DNA from: a virus
Taxonomy: Duplodnaviria > Heunggongvirae > Uroviricota > Caudoviricetes
Length of the DNA: 33,255 bases
Virus record (IMG/VR): IMGVR_UViG_2737471834_000009
Reading direction: 5' to 3' (one strand)
In this document: piece by piece, positions 9,478 through 14,586 of the stretch
Layout: every line of letters starts with the position of its first letter
Position numbering within the stretch: the first letter of the stretch is position 1
Made by a program: the position numbers and the translations under genes
The notes under the pieces: generated by a model
What the model saw: only the letters and a program-made list of their open reading frames with translations
The model's database searches: none
What the model was told of the DNA's origin: nothing

Positions 9478-9510
9478 ATCTGAGAAACGATTTTGTCGGA
9501 GGAAATTTTA

Positions 9511-10236
9511 ATGGAAACCGTATTTGACGCACTGAAAGCACTGAAAAGAGCCTCTTCACAGGTAGTGGCAGCCCGCCTTGGAATCAGCCGTGAAGATGCG
9601 GTCAACGAACTGTGGAAACTGAAGCGTCGTGGGGAAGCTGATAACAAGGGCCCGATGTGGTGGTTGACTCAAACCGACGAAAACGCATCTGTAGCACAGG
9701 CTTCTAAAGTGACAGCGCAAATGCTGATCGAGGCGATTGAACAGCATGGCCCTAAAGCGGCTGATGAACTTGCACTGATATTCAGAATTACTTCCCGCAG
9801 GGTGAACTCATCGCTGGCTATGGCAATCAGCAAAGGGCGTCTGATTCGCGTGAATCAGAACGGTAAATTTCGTTACTGTATGCCGGGCGATAATTTACCG
9901 GCAGAGCCGGAAGCTGCATCCGTAGCGGAAACGGATGGTAAAGCCTTTCCTCAGCCAGCAGGTGTTGCGTTACCAGTCCGGGAAGCGGAAACACAGGAAG
10001 AAATAAAAACGGAAAGTGTGGCGGTCACAGTGCAGTCACAGCCGTCGTTCACCAGAAAACATCCGGATGGTCTGATTTTACCATCGCTGCATGTGGCTAA
10101 CCGCGAGCTGCGCCGGGCAAAAGGTCAGGTTCAGAAGTGGGAGCGTGTCTGCGCCGCGCTGCGGGAGCTGAACAAGCACCGGGATATTGTTCGACATATT
10201 ACGGATTCTTCCCGCCGTGTTGCATCGGAAAAGTGA
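9511..10236 (+). CDS. hypothetical protein with two N-terminal winged-helix-like segments (possibly DUF1627-like)
   Basis: 242-aa ORF, RBS GGAGG 8 nt before the ATG; family assignment tentative and from memory. Confidence 0.6.
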   Translation: METVFDALKALKRASSQVVAARLGISREDAVNELWKLKRRGEADNKGPMWWLTQTDENASVAQASKVTAQMLIEAIEQHGPKAADELALIFRITSRRVNSSLAMAISKGRLIRVNQNGKFRYCMPGDNLPAEPEAASVAETDGKAFPQPAGVALPVREAETQEEIKTESVAVTVQSQPSFTRKHPDGLILPSLHVANRELRRAKGQVQKWERVCAALRELNKHRDIVRHITDSSRRVASEK

Positions 10237-10251
10237 TTGCCGGAGGCGCTT

Positions 10252-10674
10252 ATGGCAAAAGTATTTACACAAGAAGAGCGGGAAAAAATTAAAGGGCAGG
10301 TGGTTGAACTCGTGCGCCAGAGCGGTCGTGAGACGTTACGGCAACTGGAAGCCAAGACAGGTGCGACAAGATATCTGATGAGCGTTCTCGCCAGAGAGCT
10401 GGTTGCCAGTGGCGATGTATATAACTCCGGCTACGGGTTATTCCCGTCAGAACAGGCTCGTAAGGACTGGCAAAATGCCCGCAAAAAACTATCCAGGGCA
10501 AAGGTGAAGAAACCATCTGTGGTTGATCCTGACCTTATCTGGTCATTACCTGACGGAGAAATACGTCGCTACGACAGGAGTATGAACATAATCTGTCACG
10601 AGTGCCGGAAGAGTGAGGTTATGCAGCGTGTACTGGCTTTCTATCAGGGTAATTTTCAGGAGGCGGTACTGTGA
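10252..10674 (+). CDS. hypothetical protein
   Basis: 140-aa ORF starting MAKVFTQEEREKIKGQ with RBS GGAGG; contains CHECRKSE cysteine/histidine motif. Confidence 0.55.
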   Translation: MAKVFTQEEREKIKGQVVELVRQSGRETLRQLEAKTGATRYLMSVLARELVASGDVYNSGYGLFPSEQARKDWQNARKKLSRAKVKKPSVVDPDLIWSLPDGEIRRYDRSMNIICHECRKSEVMQRVLAFYQGNFQEAVL

Positions 10675-10708
10675 GTGAAATTAGCTATCAGGCTTCAATT
10701 ACCGCTGG

Positions 10709-10727
10709 CATTCGCATCAAAGGAGAG
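10709..10727 (+). repeat. junction element copy 1 (CATTCGCATCAAAGGAGAG), carries the RBS
   Basis: Identical 19-mer recurs at 11639-11657 and 12133-12151, each 5-9 nt upstream of a start codon. Confidence 0.8.
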
Positions 10728-10731
10728 GTGC

Positions 10732-11088
10732 ATGGAAATAAAACCAGAAGATGAGTTAAGCAATATCGTTTTATTTCCGGTAAAAGAGGATGACCCTCGT
10801 AATCAGGTTAATTTTCTTTATGAGCCATCGGAAAGACCATATTGCCATCACGCTTCTGTCCGGGTTGACGAAAAAGAGCGTCAGGTCCGCTGTAAAATCT
10901 GCGGTGCAGTTGTGGAGCCATTTGACTGGATGCTCTCTGTGGCGAAAAGAGAAACCAGACTGGCAGATGATGTAAGGCTATTGCGCCAGGAGGAACAGGA
11001 AAGACGGAAAAATATAGAAAAGTTAATTCAGATTGAGCGTAACGCGAAAGCGCGGATACGCAGGGTGACAAAATCCAGAACTGAATAA
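10732..11088 (+). CDS. hypothetical protein (CHH...CxxC motif, basic C-terminus)
   Basis: 118-aa ORF MEIKPEDELSNIVLFPV... preceded by the junction element AAAGGAGAGG. Confidence 0.55.
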   Translation: MEIKPEDELSNIVLFPVKEDDPRNQVNFLYEPSERPYCHHASVRVDEKERQVRCKICGAVVEPFDWMLSVAKRETRLADDVRLLRQEEQERRKNIEKLIQIERNAKARIRRVTKSRTE

Positions 11089-11183
11089 TTAAATTTAGCA
11101 CTGTTAAAAATTCGATCCTTAACCGGAGGGATTTCTGCACCCTCAGAACATCAGGAGGCCGCCCGAAAGGGCGGTAACAAATA

Positions 11184-11660
11184 ATGCAAGAAATCAAAGA
11201 AAATATCAGGCAACAGCTTTACGGGTTTTATATTGCTTATGATTTGTGGCTGAAGAACGGGGCAAAACCCGGCGGAGTGTTTTCTCAAAATTATGGTTTA
11301 TGCGCCAATCTTTTCGATTATCTCACATTAATTGGTACCCCCTGTGAGGCAGCGCTGGAGCAATTACACGCTGATTTCAGAAGTGCCGGGCTGAATGAGG
11401 CGTTGCCGTTTAACGAGGGTAAAGAGCATTACCATGAAGAAAGAGGGCACAACATGTGCCATATGAATCCGGCACGAGTGGCGTGGGTCAGGGCGCAGAC
11501 AGGGCAGCCAGCGCCGGAAGGACTGGTTAAAGCGGTGCGCTTCTATGAACAGGTTAAGCGTGAAAATCCGCCAGTCGAAACCGGAGCATGGAAAGACGCT
11601 GTTGACTGGGTTCTCGAAGAGGCTTGTCAGGCTGTAAACATTCGCATCAAAGGAGAGTGA
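11184..11660 (+). CDS. hypothetical protein ending IRIKGE
   Basis: 158-aa ORF; the last six codons are encoded by junction element copy 2; SD is separated from the ATG by a GAAA-tetraloop hairpin. Confidence 0.6.
   Translation: MQEIKENIRQQLYGFYIAYDLWLKNGAKPGGVFSQNYGLCANLFDYLTLIGTPCEAALEQLHADFRSAGLNEALPFNEGKEHYHEERGHNMCHMNPARVAWVRAQTGQPAPEGLVKAVRFYEQVKRENPPVETGAWKDAVDWVLEEACQAVNIRIKGE
11639..11657 (+). repeat. junction element copy 2 (CATTCGCATCAAAGGAGAG)
   Basis: Encodes the C-terminal IRIKGE of the upstream gene and the RBS of the downstream gene. Confidence 0.8.
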
Positions 11661-11662
11661 GA

Positions 11663-12154
11663 ATGCAAATTTCACCGGTTACTCTTCGTGTTGCGAAGGC
11701 GTTTATATCCAGACATCACCGACACAATAAACCACCTGTTGGGCATAAATTCAGCATTGGTCTGATAAATGATGCCGGAGAATTGATAGGTGTGGCGACA
11801 GCTGGTCGACCTGTTGCACGACATTTGGACGATGGATTAACGCTTGAAGTAAATCGCACATGTACCACAGGAGAACGCAACGCTAACAGCGCGCTTTATG
11901 GTGCTGTCTGGCGAGCAGCAAAAGCTATGGGTTATCAACGTTGTATTACGTACACCCAGGCAGATGAATCAGGAGCATCTCTTCGCGCAGCTGGTTTTGT
12001 TCGTGTGAAAGAGCTTCCTCCAAGAAAAAGCTGGGCGGAATCAAGCGTCGCCTTGCGGAGTAAACGCGATCCGGTCGGAAACGGTGGTGTTCCTCGTGTG
12101 CTCTGGGAAATCAGGAGAATGAGTACCACTGGCATTCGCATCAAAGGAGAGTGA
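11663..12154 (+). CDS. hypothetical protein ending IRIKGE (possible small alpha/beta enzyme-like fold, unassigned)
   Basis: 163-aa ORF MQISPVTLRVAKAFISRHHRHNKPP...; translationally coupled to both neighbours; terminal codons encoded by junction element copy 3. Confidence 0.6.
   Translation: MQISPVTLRVAKAFISRHHRHNKPPVGHKFSIGLINDAGELIGVATAGRPVARHLDDGLTLEVNRTCTTGERNANSALYGAVWRAAKAMGYQRCITYTQADESGASLRAAGFVRVKELPPRKSWAESSVALRSKRDPVGNGGVPRVLWEIRRMSTTGIRIKGE
12133..12151 (+). repeat. junction element copy 3 (CATTCGCATCAAAGGAGAG)
   Basis: Same 19-mer; followed by TGA then ATATG start of the next gene. Confidence 0.8.
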
Positions 12155-12155
12155 T

Positions 12156-12419
12156 ATGGCAACTTTGACAAAAAAGGAACAGGCATGGTTGAGCGAATTA
12201 CAGAACGTTCTTGATCGCTGCCCGTCACCGAAAAAAATTGGTTTTTACACCATTGGCGATAAAAACATTTACCTGTATGACCTACGCCGCATGGATGAAA
12301 TCATGGAGGCTCTTGATAATCGTTCGTCAATGGATTGGTGTGTTGCTGTCCATGATATGAATGCCGGATTTGAAGAAAAGATTTTGTTCCCCTCGTCAGT
12401 TGAAAGCACAGCGGGTTAA
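12156..12419 (+). CDS. hypothetical protein
   Basis: 87-aa ORF immediately after junction element copy 3. Confidence 0.55.
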   Translation: MATLTKKEQAWLSELQNVLDRCPSPKKIGFYTIGDKNIYLYDLRRMDEIMEALDNRSSMDWCVAVHDMNAGFEEKILFPSSVESTAG

Positions 12420-12429
12420 GGAGTAACAC

Positions 12430-13242
12430 ATGACCACTATTACCAAAGAGCGACTGCAATGGCTGGCTAACATTTCTGGCCGTGATGACATTGACGATAT
12501 AGACGGCGGTGAGATTCGTGAACAGGCACGAATTGCTCTGGCAGCGCTGGAAGTCGAGCCGATAGGTTTCCGTTGCAGGCGCAATGATAACCTTGGTGAT
12601 TGGAGTTACGTATATCATCGAGAGCCAGATGATTTTGAGCGCAAACATTTAGTGATAGAGGGCATTTACGCCGCCCCTCCAGCGCCAGTAGTACCGGAAG
12701 AAAAACCAATGCCTAATCCTCTTAGCATGTACGCGGTTGATGCTGTTGCCGCTATTGCAGAGGTGAGAGGCTGGAACGCCTGCCGCGCCGCCATGCTTCA
12801 GTCCGGAAACTTTCGGGAAAACAAGAATTCGTCAACCAATAATTTTCGGGAAATCGCGGAAACGTCAACCAACTCTCCGGTAATTCCTGATGAGGTGTTG
12901 TCCGCAATCCGGGAGGTTGCCAGGATTCGCGCCGATTTCGATGATTTTGACGGTGACAGGCGAGGTATCGGTGATTGTCTGGATGAGGCCGAGCAAGAGC
13001 TTATCGTTACCATTAACAAATATGCCAGTCAGTTGGCAGTAGAGCCGGTAGTACCTGATGACGTTCTGGAACAGACAGTAGCGTCGCCCGCGCCAGGTAA
13101 CCAGGTTAGCGAATTAACAATGTGGGTTAAGCGTCTGGCTCACTCCTTAAAGTACGCCAATAGCTTAAGCAGCTTGCCTGATAAGGCGATGGAGTATCTG
13201 AATCAGAATGGGCTGATAAGTGTGGAGGATGTTTTACGATGA
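12430..13242 (+). CDS. hypothetical acidic protein (possibly Ea22-like; unassigned)
   Basis: 270-aa ORF, acidic with D/E-rich segments, RBS AAGGAG before the ATG. Confidence 0.6.
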   Translation: MTTITKERLQWLANISGRDDIDDIDGGEIREQARIALAALEVEPIGFRCRRNDNLGDWSYVYHREPDDFERKHLVIEGIYAAPPAPVVPEEKPMPNPLSMYAVDAVAAIAEVRGWNACRAAMLQSGNFRENKNSSTNNFREIAETSTNSPVIPDEVLSAIREVARIRADFDDFDGDRRGIGDCLDEAEQELIVTINKYASQLAVEPVVPDDVLEQTVASPAPGNQVSELTMWVKRLAHSLKYANSLSSLPDKAMEYLNQNGLISVEDVLR

Positions 13243-13322
13243 TCTGGCCTGAGGCATTCACAACGGCAGGAATCGCGATGGCGGTGGCGCTGGTGGTGTA
13301 TTCGATTTGCCGTTGGGGTTAA
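13239..13322 (+). CDS. possible 27-aa hydrophobic peptide, translationally coupled to the upstream gene
   Basis: ATGA overlap with the upstream stop; product MIWPEAFTTAGIAMAVALVVYSICRWG; strong terminator immediately downstream. Confidence 0.3.
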   Translation: MIWPEAFTTAGIAMAVALVVYSICRWG

Positions 13323-13330
13323 CAAACAAA

Positions 13331-13358
13331 AACCCCGGATTGATGGTCCGGGGTTTTT
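13331..13358 (+). terminator. intrinsic terminator (CCCCGGA-loop-TCCGGGG followed by T5)
   Basis: Perfect 7-bp stem with a T-run; A-run upstream, so it may act in both directions. Confidence 0.7.
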
Positions 13359-13639
13359 GAAGGAAACAAAACAGAAACAACAATTGCCGTTACCTGTTGT
13401 TACCATGGCAAGTAAACGTATCTCAGGCGAGCGCATTGCGCCGTTCTGACGCAGATAAATTAGCCTGGATAGAAGGTGCTGGCAATAAAAAATAGCGTTT
13501 TCTTATCGGTGTCGGTAAGATTGCTGCGGGTGCTTGAGGCTGTCTGCCTCAGGCATGCCACTGTAAGGCAGACAGAGAAAAGCCCCAGTTAACATTATGC
13601 GTCCGGCAAGACGCTTAACATTAATCTGAGGCTCAATCT

Positions 13640-13852
13640 ATGAACGGCAAATCTAGGTTAGCCTCTTACGCGCCGAAAGGCAAGGAGAAGCAGGCTATGA
13701 AGCAGCAAAAGGCGATGTTAGTCGCCCTGATCGTCATCTGTATTACCGTCATTGTGACGGCACTGGTAACGAGGAAAGACCTCTGCGAGGTACGAATCCG
13801 AACCGGCCAGACGGAGGTCACTGTCTTCACAGCTTACGAACCTGAGGAGTAA
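13640..13852 (+). CDS. Mok-like reading frame (in-frame N-terminal extension of Hok)
   Basis: 70-aa ORF containing the hok frame, as in chromosomal mok/hok loci. Confidence 0.55.
   Translation: MNGKSRLASYAPKGKEKQAMKQQKAMLVALIVICITVIVTALVTRKDLCEVRIRTGQTEVTVFTAYEPEE
13697..13852 (+). CDS. hok: Hok/Gef family type I toxin
   Basis: 51-aa product MKQQKAMLVALIVICITVIVTALVTRKDLCEVRIRTGQTEVTVFTAYEPEE is near-identical to remembered HokD/RelF; mRNA leader has the tac-like hairpin GCTTGAGGCTGTCTGCCTCAGG. Confidence 0.85.
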   Translation: MKQQKAMLVALIVICITVIVTALVTRKDLCEVRIRTGQTEVTVFTAYEPEE

Positions 13853-13995
13853 GAGACCAGGCGGGGGAGAAATCCCTCGCCACCTCTGATGTGTCAGGCA
13901 TCCTCAACGCACCCGCACTTAACCCGCTTCGGCGTTTTTTCCGTTGATTAACTCTAGTTATTAGAGAACCGAACTTTTATTGATGGGGCAGGGAG

Positions 13996-14388
13996 ATGAA
14001 GAAACTTGTTTTAGTCGCAGGTGTAATGATTGCAACAGTAATGTTGGGAGGGTGTGCAGCAAAGGTCGATCCAGCGTTGAAAGCAGAAGCAATGAAGCCA
14101 CTAACATGTAATGATGAAAAGCAATGTGACTTTTATTGGAAACGAGCGCAATTCTGGTTGGCTAATAATTCCTCATGGAAAATTCAAACGGCGACAGACA
14201 CGCTAATTTCCACTTATAATCCCTCTCCAAATAGTCCATTCCTCGCTTATCAAGTGAGTAAAATGCCAAATGAAGATGGATCCTCAAGAATTTTCATCAA
14301 GCCTTTTTGCGATAATATGTTTGGCTGTCAACCAAACCCCTATCAGGCAGTTGTTTCCTTTAAAAACTTCGTTAAAACAGGGCAGTAG
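13996..14388 (+). CDS. putative lipoprotein (moron)
   Basis: Signal peptide with lipobox MLGGC, four further cysteines; followed by an intrinsic terminator. Confidence 0.7.
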   Translation: MKKLVLVAGVMIATVMLGGCAAKVDPALKAEAMKPLTCNDEKQCDFYWKRAQFWLANNSSWKIQTATDTLISTYNPSPNSPFLAYQVSKMPNEDGSSRIFIKPFCDNMFGCQPNPYQAVVSFKNFVKTGQ

Positions 14389-14586
14389 TGTATAGCTTGG
14401 ACGATAAATTATTAGTGAAAACGCCGTAAACCCTCACCCAATGTGGACTAAGCCTATCAAACATGACTGTGATGATTAGTCCGTAGTTGTTGCCTATGAA
14501 ATCTGGATTGAGTCAGGGTTTAATCCAATAATTATTCTATCGTTCCTTTACAAGTCCGGTATATTACTTTCAGTTTGTTTTAGCAT

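Follow-up and report, generated by a model that had tools for sequence, protein, structure and literature searches.

A nineteen-nucleotide element repeated at gene junctions of a lambdoid prophage is a likely linker for homologous cassette exchange and a shared ribosome-binding site

We analyzed a stretch of 33,255 nucleotides (nt) from a tailed virus of the Caudoviricetes (IMG/VR virus record IMGVR_UViG_2737471834_000009), hereafter the window, in which three exact copies of a 19-mer, CATTCGCATCAAAGGAGAG, lie within an array of small accessory genes. Comparison with related loci points to this element as the sole homology among otherwise unrelated cassettes, with the breakpoints of natural recombinants falling within it, and we consider it likely that the element is a linker for homologous cassette exchange that is at the same time a ribosome-binding site (RBS) and translational-coupling junction, where we infer recombination from its products. 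An earlier, sequence-only reading of this DNA had offered a cassette-shuffling linker or a conserved translational-coupling cassette; these appear not to be alternatives, and both appear to hold. The linker proposal agrees with the variable flanks, the breakpoints at the element and the hybrid junctions in other genomes, from which the mechanism is deduced, and the coupling proposal agrees with the RBS and coupling geometry at all three copies.

Three copies of the element in the window

The copies of the 19-mer occupy positions 10709-10727, 11639-11657 and 12133-12151 on the + strand of the whole window, starting exactly where they had been reported. The window holds no further site of CATTCGCATCAAAGGAGAG at up to 3 mismatches, and 100 dinucleotide-preserving shuffles of it gave 0 matches to the 19-mer; the repetition is real and non-random. 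Copies 1 and 3 are alike over 28 nt, TACC(G/A)CTGG plus the 19-mer, with an exact run of 23 nt, and copies 2 and 3 share an exact run of 22 nt; the exact runs between the window's copies are 19, 22 and 23 nt. As a junction, copy 1 (10700..10734, +) consists of TACCGCTGG, the 19-mer, GTGC and ATG, with AAGGAG at 10720-10725; copy 2 (11639..11665, +) consists of the 19-mer, TGA, GA and ATG, with AAGGAG at 11650-11655; and copy 3 (12124..12158, +) consists of TACCACTGG, the 19-mer, TGA, T and ATG, with AAGGAG at 12144-12149. The start codon and RBS that had been claimed for each copy are borne out by an ATG at 10732, 11663 and 12156 (spacers GTGC, TGAGA and TGAT) and by AAGGAG lying 6, 7 and 6 nt 5' of the respective ATG. 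Copy 2 also encodes the end of the open reading frame (ORF) 11184-11660 (...NIRIKGE, then stop) and copy 3 that of ORF 11663-12154 (...TTGIRIKGE, then stop), the shared tail and stop having likewise been read correctly. The array of accessory genes lies between the replication/LygF genes and hokD, and the three copies would delimit its cassettes.

Copy 1 had been called intergenic. It does lie between annotated genes, and RefSeq has no annotation at its position in the near-identical locus L122, but it is not plain intergenic DNA: it stands in the IRIKGE frame of a 27-codon remnant ORF, VSEISYQASITAGIRIKGEVHGNKTRR (10671..10754, +), whose GTG overlaps the TGA stop of the upstream DUF977/LygF gene and which extends 23 nt into the next gene. 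The stop codon of copy 1 is substituted (GAGgtgcATG versus GAGTGAnATG). Because copy 1 shares the IRIKGE frame of this ORF, it is a remnant 3' gene end, the leftover of an Ea22-type gene and not a neutral spacer, and on our reading it is the scar of a gene that was lost. The remnant ORF recurs in many viral contigs, some of which carry it as an in-frame fusion to LygF or to an Ea22 N terminus. A remnant of this type reading '...VSEISYQASI(T/A)AGIRIKGE' is fused in frame to an Ea22 N terminus (MTTITKERIELFIKFSGGGTVSEISYQ..., 47 amino acids (aa)), and in another contig such a remnant is joined to the LygF C terminus (...VLAFYQGVGSGGGAVSEISYQ...), with a 167-aa ORF among the examples. By their sequence, these fusions look like deletion derivatives retaining two gene ends only.

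Unrelated genes around a shared core

Tabulation of the genes flanking the 19-mer had been suggested with the sequence-only reading, which took either absence of the 19-mer from other phages or constancy of its flanking genes to speak against its proposals. Neither was found. For 124 occurrences we collected the two ORFs that meet at the junction, one terminating in the element and one beginning behind it; upstream modules were told apart by inspection of individual sequences, and single-linkage clustering chained them through the shared tail. The upstream ORFs ended in at least 12 unrelated C-terminal modules, most of them Ea22-type domains following a coiled coil; the others were the XF1762 enzyme and the module that ends the 158-aa protein of the window. 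In turn, the downstream genes belonged to about 15 unrelated families, and upstream and downstream types combined freely. Among 5,356 pairs drawn from 104 distinct occurrences, homology was limited to the element (at most ~12 nt to its left and ~10 nt to its right) in 80%, and the remaining pairs were alike in one flank only (16%) or in both (3%).

The consensus of these occurrences is gccgCTGG-CATTCGCATCAAAGGAGAG-TGAnATG, in which the last six to eight codons read (A/T)GIRIKGE and the offset of the ATG is fixed in 97-99% of cases. Between copies with unrelated flanks the exact run has a median of 25 nt, reaching 23 nt or more in 82% and 31 nt or more in 12%. De Paepe et al. (2014, PMC3945230) put the minimal efficient pairing segment of Red-beta at 23-27 base pairs (bp) and that of RecA at 31-34 bp. 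Many of the Ea22-type C-terminal modules (47, 54, 59, 81 and 86 aa) start right after the coiled-coil motif (K)RIAELE (loci L001-L120) and, like domain cassettes, are enclosed by RIAELE at their left end and AGIRIKGE at their right end.

Natural recombinants with breakpoints at the element

Positions 9500-14400 of the window are matched in part by 4,949 of 5,426 complete Escherichia coli genomes (about 91%), and one genome only covers at least 80% of this region; the array is therefore highly mosaic. Close relatives that agree with the window in the outer flanks (LygF ... hokD) differ in the cassettes between them. Three of these relatives, L123, L124 and L126, have three different Ea22-type modules ahead of copy 1 and become homologous to the window again at the left edge of that copy (10703-10705). 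At the copy-2 position L126 has the degenerate CATTGGTACCAAAGGAGAT (NIGTKGD, then stop) followed by a different gene, and at the copy-3 position it has the half-element AAAGGAGAGTGATATG only, behind a different upstream gene. Ends of homology scatter ~20 nt to either side of the element and sometimes fall inside it.

Recombination among the copies of the window itself would create three hybrid junctions, which we assembled and used as queries. E. coli CFS3313 matched the 1x2 junction without interruption over 341 nt, and the 2x3 junction was found on plasmid-sized records of ~59 kilobases (kb); the precise 1x3 deletion junction was not found among the matches listed, in which the top full-coverage matches consisted of three pieces over ~1.1 kb. 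In CFS3313 a block 98.6% identical to window positions 11639-12151, which begins precisely where copy 2 begins, ends precisely where copy 3 ends and contains the XF1762 cassette, sits inserted at copy 1, which gives the order LygF, element, XF1762, element, zinc-ribbon gene and the hybrid junctions 1-left/2-right and 3-left/1-right. The plasmid pEc42_3 carries the hybrid junction 2-left/3-right. The junctions of CFS3313 and pEc42_3 have the form that products of homologous exchange within the element would be expected to take.

Conservation of the DNA and of the encoded tail

In 1.16 megabases of related loci, 122 of 124 IRIKGE-coding sites had one and the same spelling. Variants with one mismatch comprised R to G (4 sites), R to C (1 site) and synonymous changes, and the resulting 5 non-synonymous versus 3 synonymous changes are too few to carry weight alone. 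Directed scans of viral contigs for synonymous spellings of the I-R-I codons returned 2, 3 and 14 contigs, compared with at least 120 for the canonical spelling, and these variants likewise sit between varied genes; a degenerate scan of one genome per species returned no non-canonical spelling in genuine relatives. The RIAELE coiled-coil motif of the same ORFs, in contrast, has at least 12 DNA spellings and is conserved at the protein level only. Diverged gene bodies therefore carry identical tails.

The tail also stands apart from the proteins that bear it. The NF045478 (XF1762) profile aligns to residues 3-136 of 163 only, most XF1762 homologs in other genera end in ...RVLWEIR(R) without the tail, and the AlphaFold2 model has its last strand at 145-151 and the tail, residues 152-163, as coil with predicted local distance difference test (pLDDT) values of 46-63. 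Lying outside the family core and predicted to be disordered, the tail also tolerates substitutions and would be dispensable for the XF1762 fold. Junctions of the commonest type have no stop codon, so that translation continues into ...GEEHGNKTRG; the motif is therefore not consistently C-terminal. These comparisons indicate that the DNA, and not the peptide, is what is propagated.

Sister elements in other genera

Some XF1762 homologs of other genera have different tails, each repeated on a neighbouring unrelated gene of the same prophage. The sister element is TGGCATCCAGGTTATCGAAGGAGAAG (GIQVIEGE..) in Salmonella (L179), an identical 31 nt, TGGCATCAAATTGCAGATCGAGGGGGAGTGA (GIKLQIEGE, then stop), in Enterobacter (L182), and GCTGGCATCAAGGTGGAGGTGAAATAG (AGIKVEVK, then stop) in Klebsiella (L177). 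Among the viral contigs, 7 had the GIKLQIEGE spelling, 8 the GIQVIEGEGQ spelling and 6 the GIKVEVK spelling; the upstream modules in these three sets numbered 7, 8 and 2, and the downstream genes about 7, about 7 and 1, respectively. The same protein modules bear different tails in different genera (for example, ...KWFWEQSEAERAAGIRIKGE versus ...ERAAAGIKVEVK), and the spelling therefore follows the gene pool, not the protein; gene-pool-specific spelling is the pattern that concerted evolution through recombination would be expected to leave.

Two of these arrays carry further genes next to the XF1762 cassette. A Klebsiella prophage (L176/L177 8796-10381) has the Kiwa defence pair KwaA/KwaB directly after it, and in a Salmonella prophage (L179 8748-13154) a gene for a DNA methylase of 664 aa comes after the cassette, with an AcrVA2-like gene further on. 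This gene content fits a view of the arrays as possible hotspots for defence and counter-defence cargo.

Expression signals of the junction

The Shine-Dalgarno (SD) sequence of the element stands at near-ideal spacing, and stop and start codons are 1-3 nt apart (TGAGAATG at copy 2, TGATATG at copy 3). This geometry suggests that the element is an RBS and translational-coupling signal for whichever gene follows; ribosomes ending the upstream gene would re-initiate at the shared, optimally spaced RBS of each downstream cassette.

The local RNA at the copies is no more structured than shuffles (fold z-scores +0.18 to +1.37), and no inverted repeat or hairpin is present at any copy. A search of Rfam gave no match over the element at E<=1; the gathering score was reached by the sok RNA at 13528-13702 alone, and other Rfam matches are below threshold and outside the element. 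RNA-level explanations were rejected on these three grounds, namely the lack of an Rfam family, the lack of an inverted repeat and folding no more stable than that of shuffles.

Proposed mechanism and alternative explanations

The element spans the last codons, the stop, the SD sequence and the ATG, and exchange there would leave genes and expression signals intact. We propose that co-resident or co-infecting temperate phages, prophages and phage-plasmids of enterobacteria would recombine at the element, the probable catalysts being the phages' own single-strand-annealing recombinases of the Red-beta, RecT or Erf type, which need about 23-27 bp. Whole genes would thereby be swapped, inserted, deleted or permuted in register with frames and expression signals unbroken, and repeated exchange would keep the element near-identical within one phage gene pool while separate pools drift in spelling.

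Several observations weigh against this proposal. The main sample, of at least 120 viral contigs, was chosen by exact match, which inflates its uniformity, a bias that is partly corrected by the variant counts, the degenerate scan and the scans for synonymous spellings. Orthologous copies gain substitutions at about the rate of their flanks: copies 2 and 3 each differ at 1 position in L123 and in L124, where the flanks are 96% identical. Together with the degenerate copy of L126, these mismatches mean that some copies are not strongly constrained. At certain junctions, such as copy 3 of L126, half of the element only is kept, and illegitimate events therefore contribute too. The window's own runs of 19-23 nt are at or below the Red-beta minimum, and exchange between them would be rare. 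Finally, the tails of different genera keep an A-G-I start and an alternating hydrophobic/polar pattern, which could reflect a role at the protein level.

In a rival explanation, (A)GIRIKGE and its sister tails are a functional C-terminal peptide, for example a stability tag or a beta-strand by which diverse effector domains dock onto one host or phage partner, and the identity of the DNA merely reflects recent common ancestry. The joining of the tail to many unrelated domains, this likeness of tails between genera despite different DNA and the way in which the tail version follows the host genus, as co-evolution with a host partner predicts, all agree with it. However, copy 1 is 100% identical although it is a non-genic remnant, the commonest junction type lacks the stop and extends the motif by EHGNKTRG, and R to G, R to C and NIGTKGD variants exist. 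Synonymous diversity is moreover far below that of the protein-conserved RIAELE of the same genes, the tail is outside the XF1762 core, missing in most homologs and predicted to be disordered, and a peptide function leaves the fixed stop-start register with unrelated downstream genes unexplained; we regard this explanation as quite unlikely. An explanation by expression only, in which the RBS and stop-start coupling are under selection, shuffling proceeds by illegitimate recombination anywhere and selection picks the junctions that restore an RBS, the element itself not being a recombination substrate, accounts for the near-ideal SD sequence and spacing at all copies, for the unstructured local RNA, as an open RBS predicts, and for half-elements with just AAAGGAGAGTGATATG (L126). 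It explains AAGGAG(N6-7)ATG but not the identity of the 14 nt 5' of it (CTGGCATTCGCATC), synonymous sites included. The hybrids of CFS3313 and pEc42_3 are, moreover, exact at the element on both sides, as would rarely result from repeated illegitimate events, and the identity of genus-specific spellings on neighbouring genes argues that the DNA itself is copied. We consider selection for expression alone unlikely. In a third rival explanation, the element is a site for a dedicated, integron-attC-like site-specific recombinase, as the layout recalls an array of gene cassettes whose boundaries all bear the repeated site. We find this very improbable: the element has no inverted repeat or hairpin and lies inside coding sequence in a fixed frame, the ends of homology are scattered with no fixed cleavage point, and no recombinase gene is present in the annotated arrays of L122-L126 and L204 or beside the array of the window.

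A stronger form of the linker proposal is that the IRIKGE element and its sisters GIKLQIEGE, GIQVIEGEGQ and GIKVEVK constitute an evolved homology-based cassette-exchange system with a recombinase-matched 'address label', which we put forward tentatively as a rather doubtful extension. If true, a label sized to the pairing minimum of Red-beta, RecT or Erf would move accessory, anti-defence and host-takeover genes in register across early-left operons, nin-side arrays, P22-like phages and phage-plasmids; its spelling would be kept per pool by concerted evolution and would set who trades genes with whom. The encoded tail may also be a common protein tag.

Origin and spread

In lambda the ea22 gene terminates in the exact 19-mer (...HMMSDAGIRIKGE, then stop; NC_001416 29850-29868, minus strand), which encodes ...SDAGIRIKGE and a stop. 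It is also the 3' end of HK620 hkaG (Ead/Ea22-like), at the hkaG/hkaF junction, where HK620 has its one copy. P22 has no copy within 4 mismatches; the element is therefore not universal in genes of the Ea region. In lambda the element is followed by TGAGATCGG instead of TGAGATGG, and the downstream start codon is gone. The gap between ea22 and ea8.5 of lambda comprises ~190 nt without an annotated gene (NC_001416 29656-29849; L121 ~857-1050) and may be the scar of a lost cassette.

Beyond lambda, exact-match scanning recovered the 19-mer in at least 120 IMG/VR viral contigs and in about 400 of 50,697 annotated phage records, answering the call for such a search made with the sequence-only reading. 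The phage records include lambda relatives, Stx1 and Stx2 phages, P22-like Salmonella phages (at EaD/EaA junctions) and P1/SJ46-like phage-plasmids of ~100 kb. The phage-plasmid-type carriers include SJ46, PH444, CMS-2020a and vB_EcoM-813R1. On the plasmid pEc42_3 (NZ_CP059122.1, L205) the element cassettes adjoin mobilization and HicAB genes, and a search of plasmids with window positions 9500-14400 gave 807 matching places. The element and its cassettes occur on plasmids and phage-plasmids, and the exchange network would therefore reach beyond integrated lambdoid prophages.

In the degenerate scan of one genome per species the genuine carriers were only Escherichia spp., Shimwellia and two probably misbinned contigs of metagenome-assembled genomes; the other hits were mostly lambda DNA contamination, together with roughly as many hits as had been estimated by chance (about 10). 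The contaminants (within L127-L173) are about 33 short, low-coverage contigs, 99.6-100% identical to the lambda ea22 region, in public assemblies of unrelated organisms (Streptococcus equinus, Prevotella pallens, several Streptomyces, Bradyrhizobium, Shewanella, Pseudomonas and others), and they look like lambda control or spike-in DNA. The contigs binned as Segatella copri (L132) and Collinsella (L163) have a non-lambda, enterobacterial-prophage version of the element and are probably misbinned.

Genes of the cassette array

The window is a lambdoid prophage with DnaT-like and lambda-P-like replication genes, DUF1627, DUF977/LygF (Ren-like), the array of small genes and hok/sok; beyond hok/sok, the ORFs appear from their layout alone to be lambdoid lysis, packaging, head and tail genes. 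On its left the array is anchored by a conserved gene, DUF977/LygF (Ren-like exclusion; 10237..10674, +; Pfam PF06163, E=3.8e-31; phrog_142). Cassette gene 1 (10732..11088, +; phrog_1621) encodes a 118-aa zinc-ribbon-like protein and belongs to the type found most often 3' of the element (40 of the 124 occurrences). Cassette gene 2 (11184..11660, +) encodes a 158-aa mosaic protein whose N- and C-terminal halves match different PHROGs and whose last ~45 aa (PEGLVKAVRFYEQ...ACQAVNIRIKGE) form a module that also ends Ea22-like proteins elsewhere; pEc42_3 (L205) is among the evidence for this mosaic module. Cassette gene 3 (11663..12154, +; NCBIfam NF045478, E=6e-61) encodes a protein of the XF1762 family (Mom-like acyltransferase fold) with the tail MSTTGIRIKGE, and cassette gene 4 (12156..12419, +; phrog_1714) an 87-aa protein whose gene elsewhere sits behind at least 7 different upstream modules. 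None of the window's three upstream ORFs (the remnant, the 158-aa mosaic and the XF1762-family protein) matches Pfam Ead_Ea22 (PF13935), and the IRIKGE tail appears to have moved onto non-Ea22 genes, here the XF1762-family enzyme and another mosaic protein.

The array ends on the right with a hok/sok type I toxin-antitoxin locus at 13528-13852, comprising sok RNA (Rfam RF01794, 111.7 bits, 13528-13702) and a Hok-like 70-aa ORF (13640-13852), which is named hokD in the annotation of relatives and is the conserved right anchor. The 270-aa protein encoded at 12430-13242 has an Ea22-family-like start, MTTITKERL..., and a different end module, ...NGLISVEDVLR followed by a stop, which also ends an otherwise different protein in L125 (2723-3238) and may be a second kind of shared gene end. 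Its last ~50 aa match phrog_660, 924 and 8171, and its gene contains an imperfect 33-nt tandem repeat at 12808-12872.

Comparison with known systems

The modular theory of phage evolution predicted conserved linkers at module borders, and the element is a concrete, abundant and tractable example of them: a defined sequence of ~25 nt with hundreds of natural recombinant junctions, for which synonymous variants, half-elements and genus-specific spellings are natural controls at hand. A specialist in phage evolution would not be surprised by it, yet the instance lies in the best-studied phage system. It offers a route to measuring the share of short-homology recombination in the flux of accessory genes among E. 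coli prophages, including Stx phages and phage-plasmids. It is also of use in annotation, where the shared tail makes unrelated proteins look homologous and accounts for chimeric assignments to PHROG and Pfam families.

The concept of linkers at module borders goes back to Susskind and Botstein (1978) and was taken up for HK620 by Clark et al. (2001, J Mol Biol 311:657), and later papers cite such 'short conserved boundary sequences' as a way to mosaicism that is accepted yet seldom documented (PMC3029335, PMC2327257). Like those linkers, the element is a short sequence common to related phages that borders otherwise unrelated modules and coincides with mosaic breakpoints, for which homologous recombination is proposed. 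In addition, it is partly coding, providing a shared protein tail together with the RBS and start of the downstream gene, its median run falls within the Red-beta pairing range, and it has genus-specific sister spellings; it also extends beyond lambdoid early-left operons to nin-side arrays, P22-like phages and phage-plasmids. HK620 carries one copy, and the element may be among the boundary sequences of Clark et al. Neither the string IRIKGE nor this specific element was found in the searchable literature, a scope that excludes Clark et al. 2001.

The Ead/Ea22-like proteins of the lambda exo-xis region are described as mosaic, with C-terminal regions lacking similarity (PMC10834534; PDB 8dsx). 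The present element shares this setting, as it is the 3' end of lambda ea22 and many of its upstream modules are Ea22-type C-terminal domains; that description (PMC10834534) makes no mention of a shared terminal tail or junction, and the nuclear magnetic resonance paper on lambda Ea22 says nothing on residues 176-182. Phage Rad52-like recombinases are a source of mosaicism through relaxed or short-homology recombination (Martinsohn et al. 2008, PMC2327257; De Paepe et al. 2014, PMC3945230). They would supply the enzymology for ~25 nt of identity, and the exchange between phages and resident (defective) prophages in those studies matches the distribution of the element; the studies treat diverged homologous regions ('HR traces', HR standing for homologous recombination) that flank mosaics, not a discrete repeated gene-junction element.

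The array also resembles integron cassettes in consisting of promoterless accessory genes, each bounded by a repeated site. Integron attC sites are imperfect palindromes recombined by IntI, whereas the element has neither dyad symmetry nor a dedicated recombinase, codes in frame and has crossover points that are not fixed. To the literature within reach, the present analysis may add the element itself, lambda included, its dual coding and RBS anatomy, the combinatorics of its flanks and exact recombinants, and further the agreement of its median run with the Red-beta pairing range, its occurrence in nin-side arrays and on plasmids, and the genus-specific sisters. The kind is known and the concept is old; this element is an unusually clean and testable instance of it.

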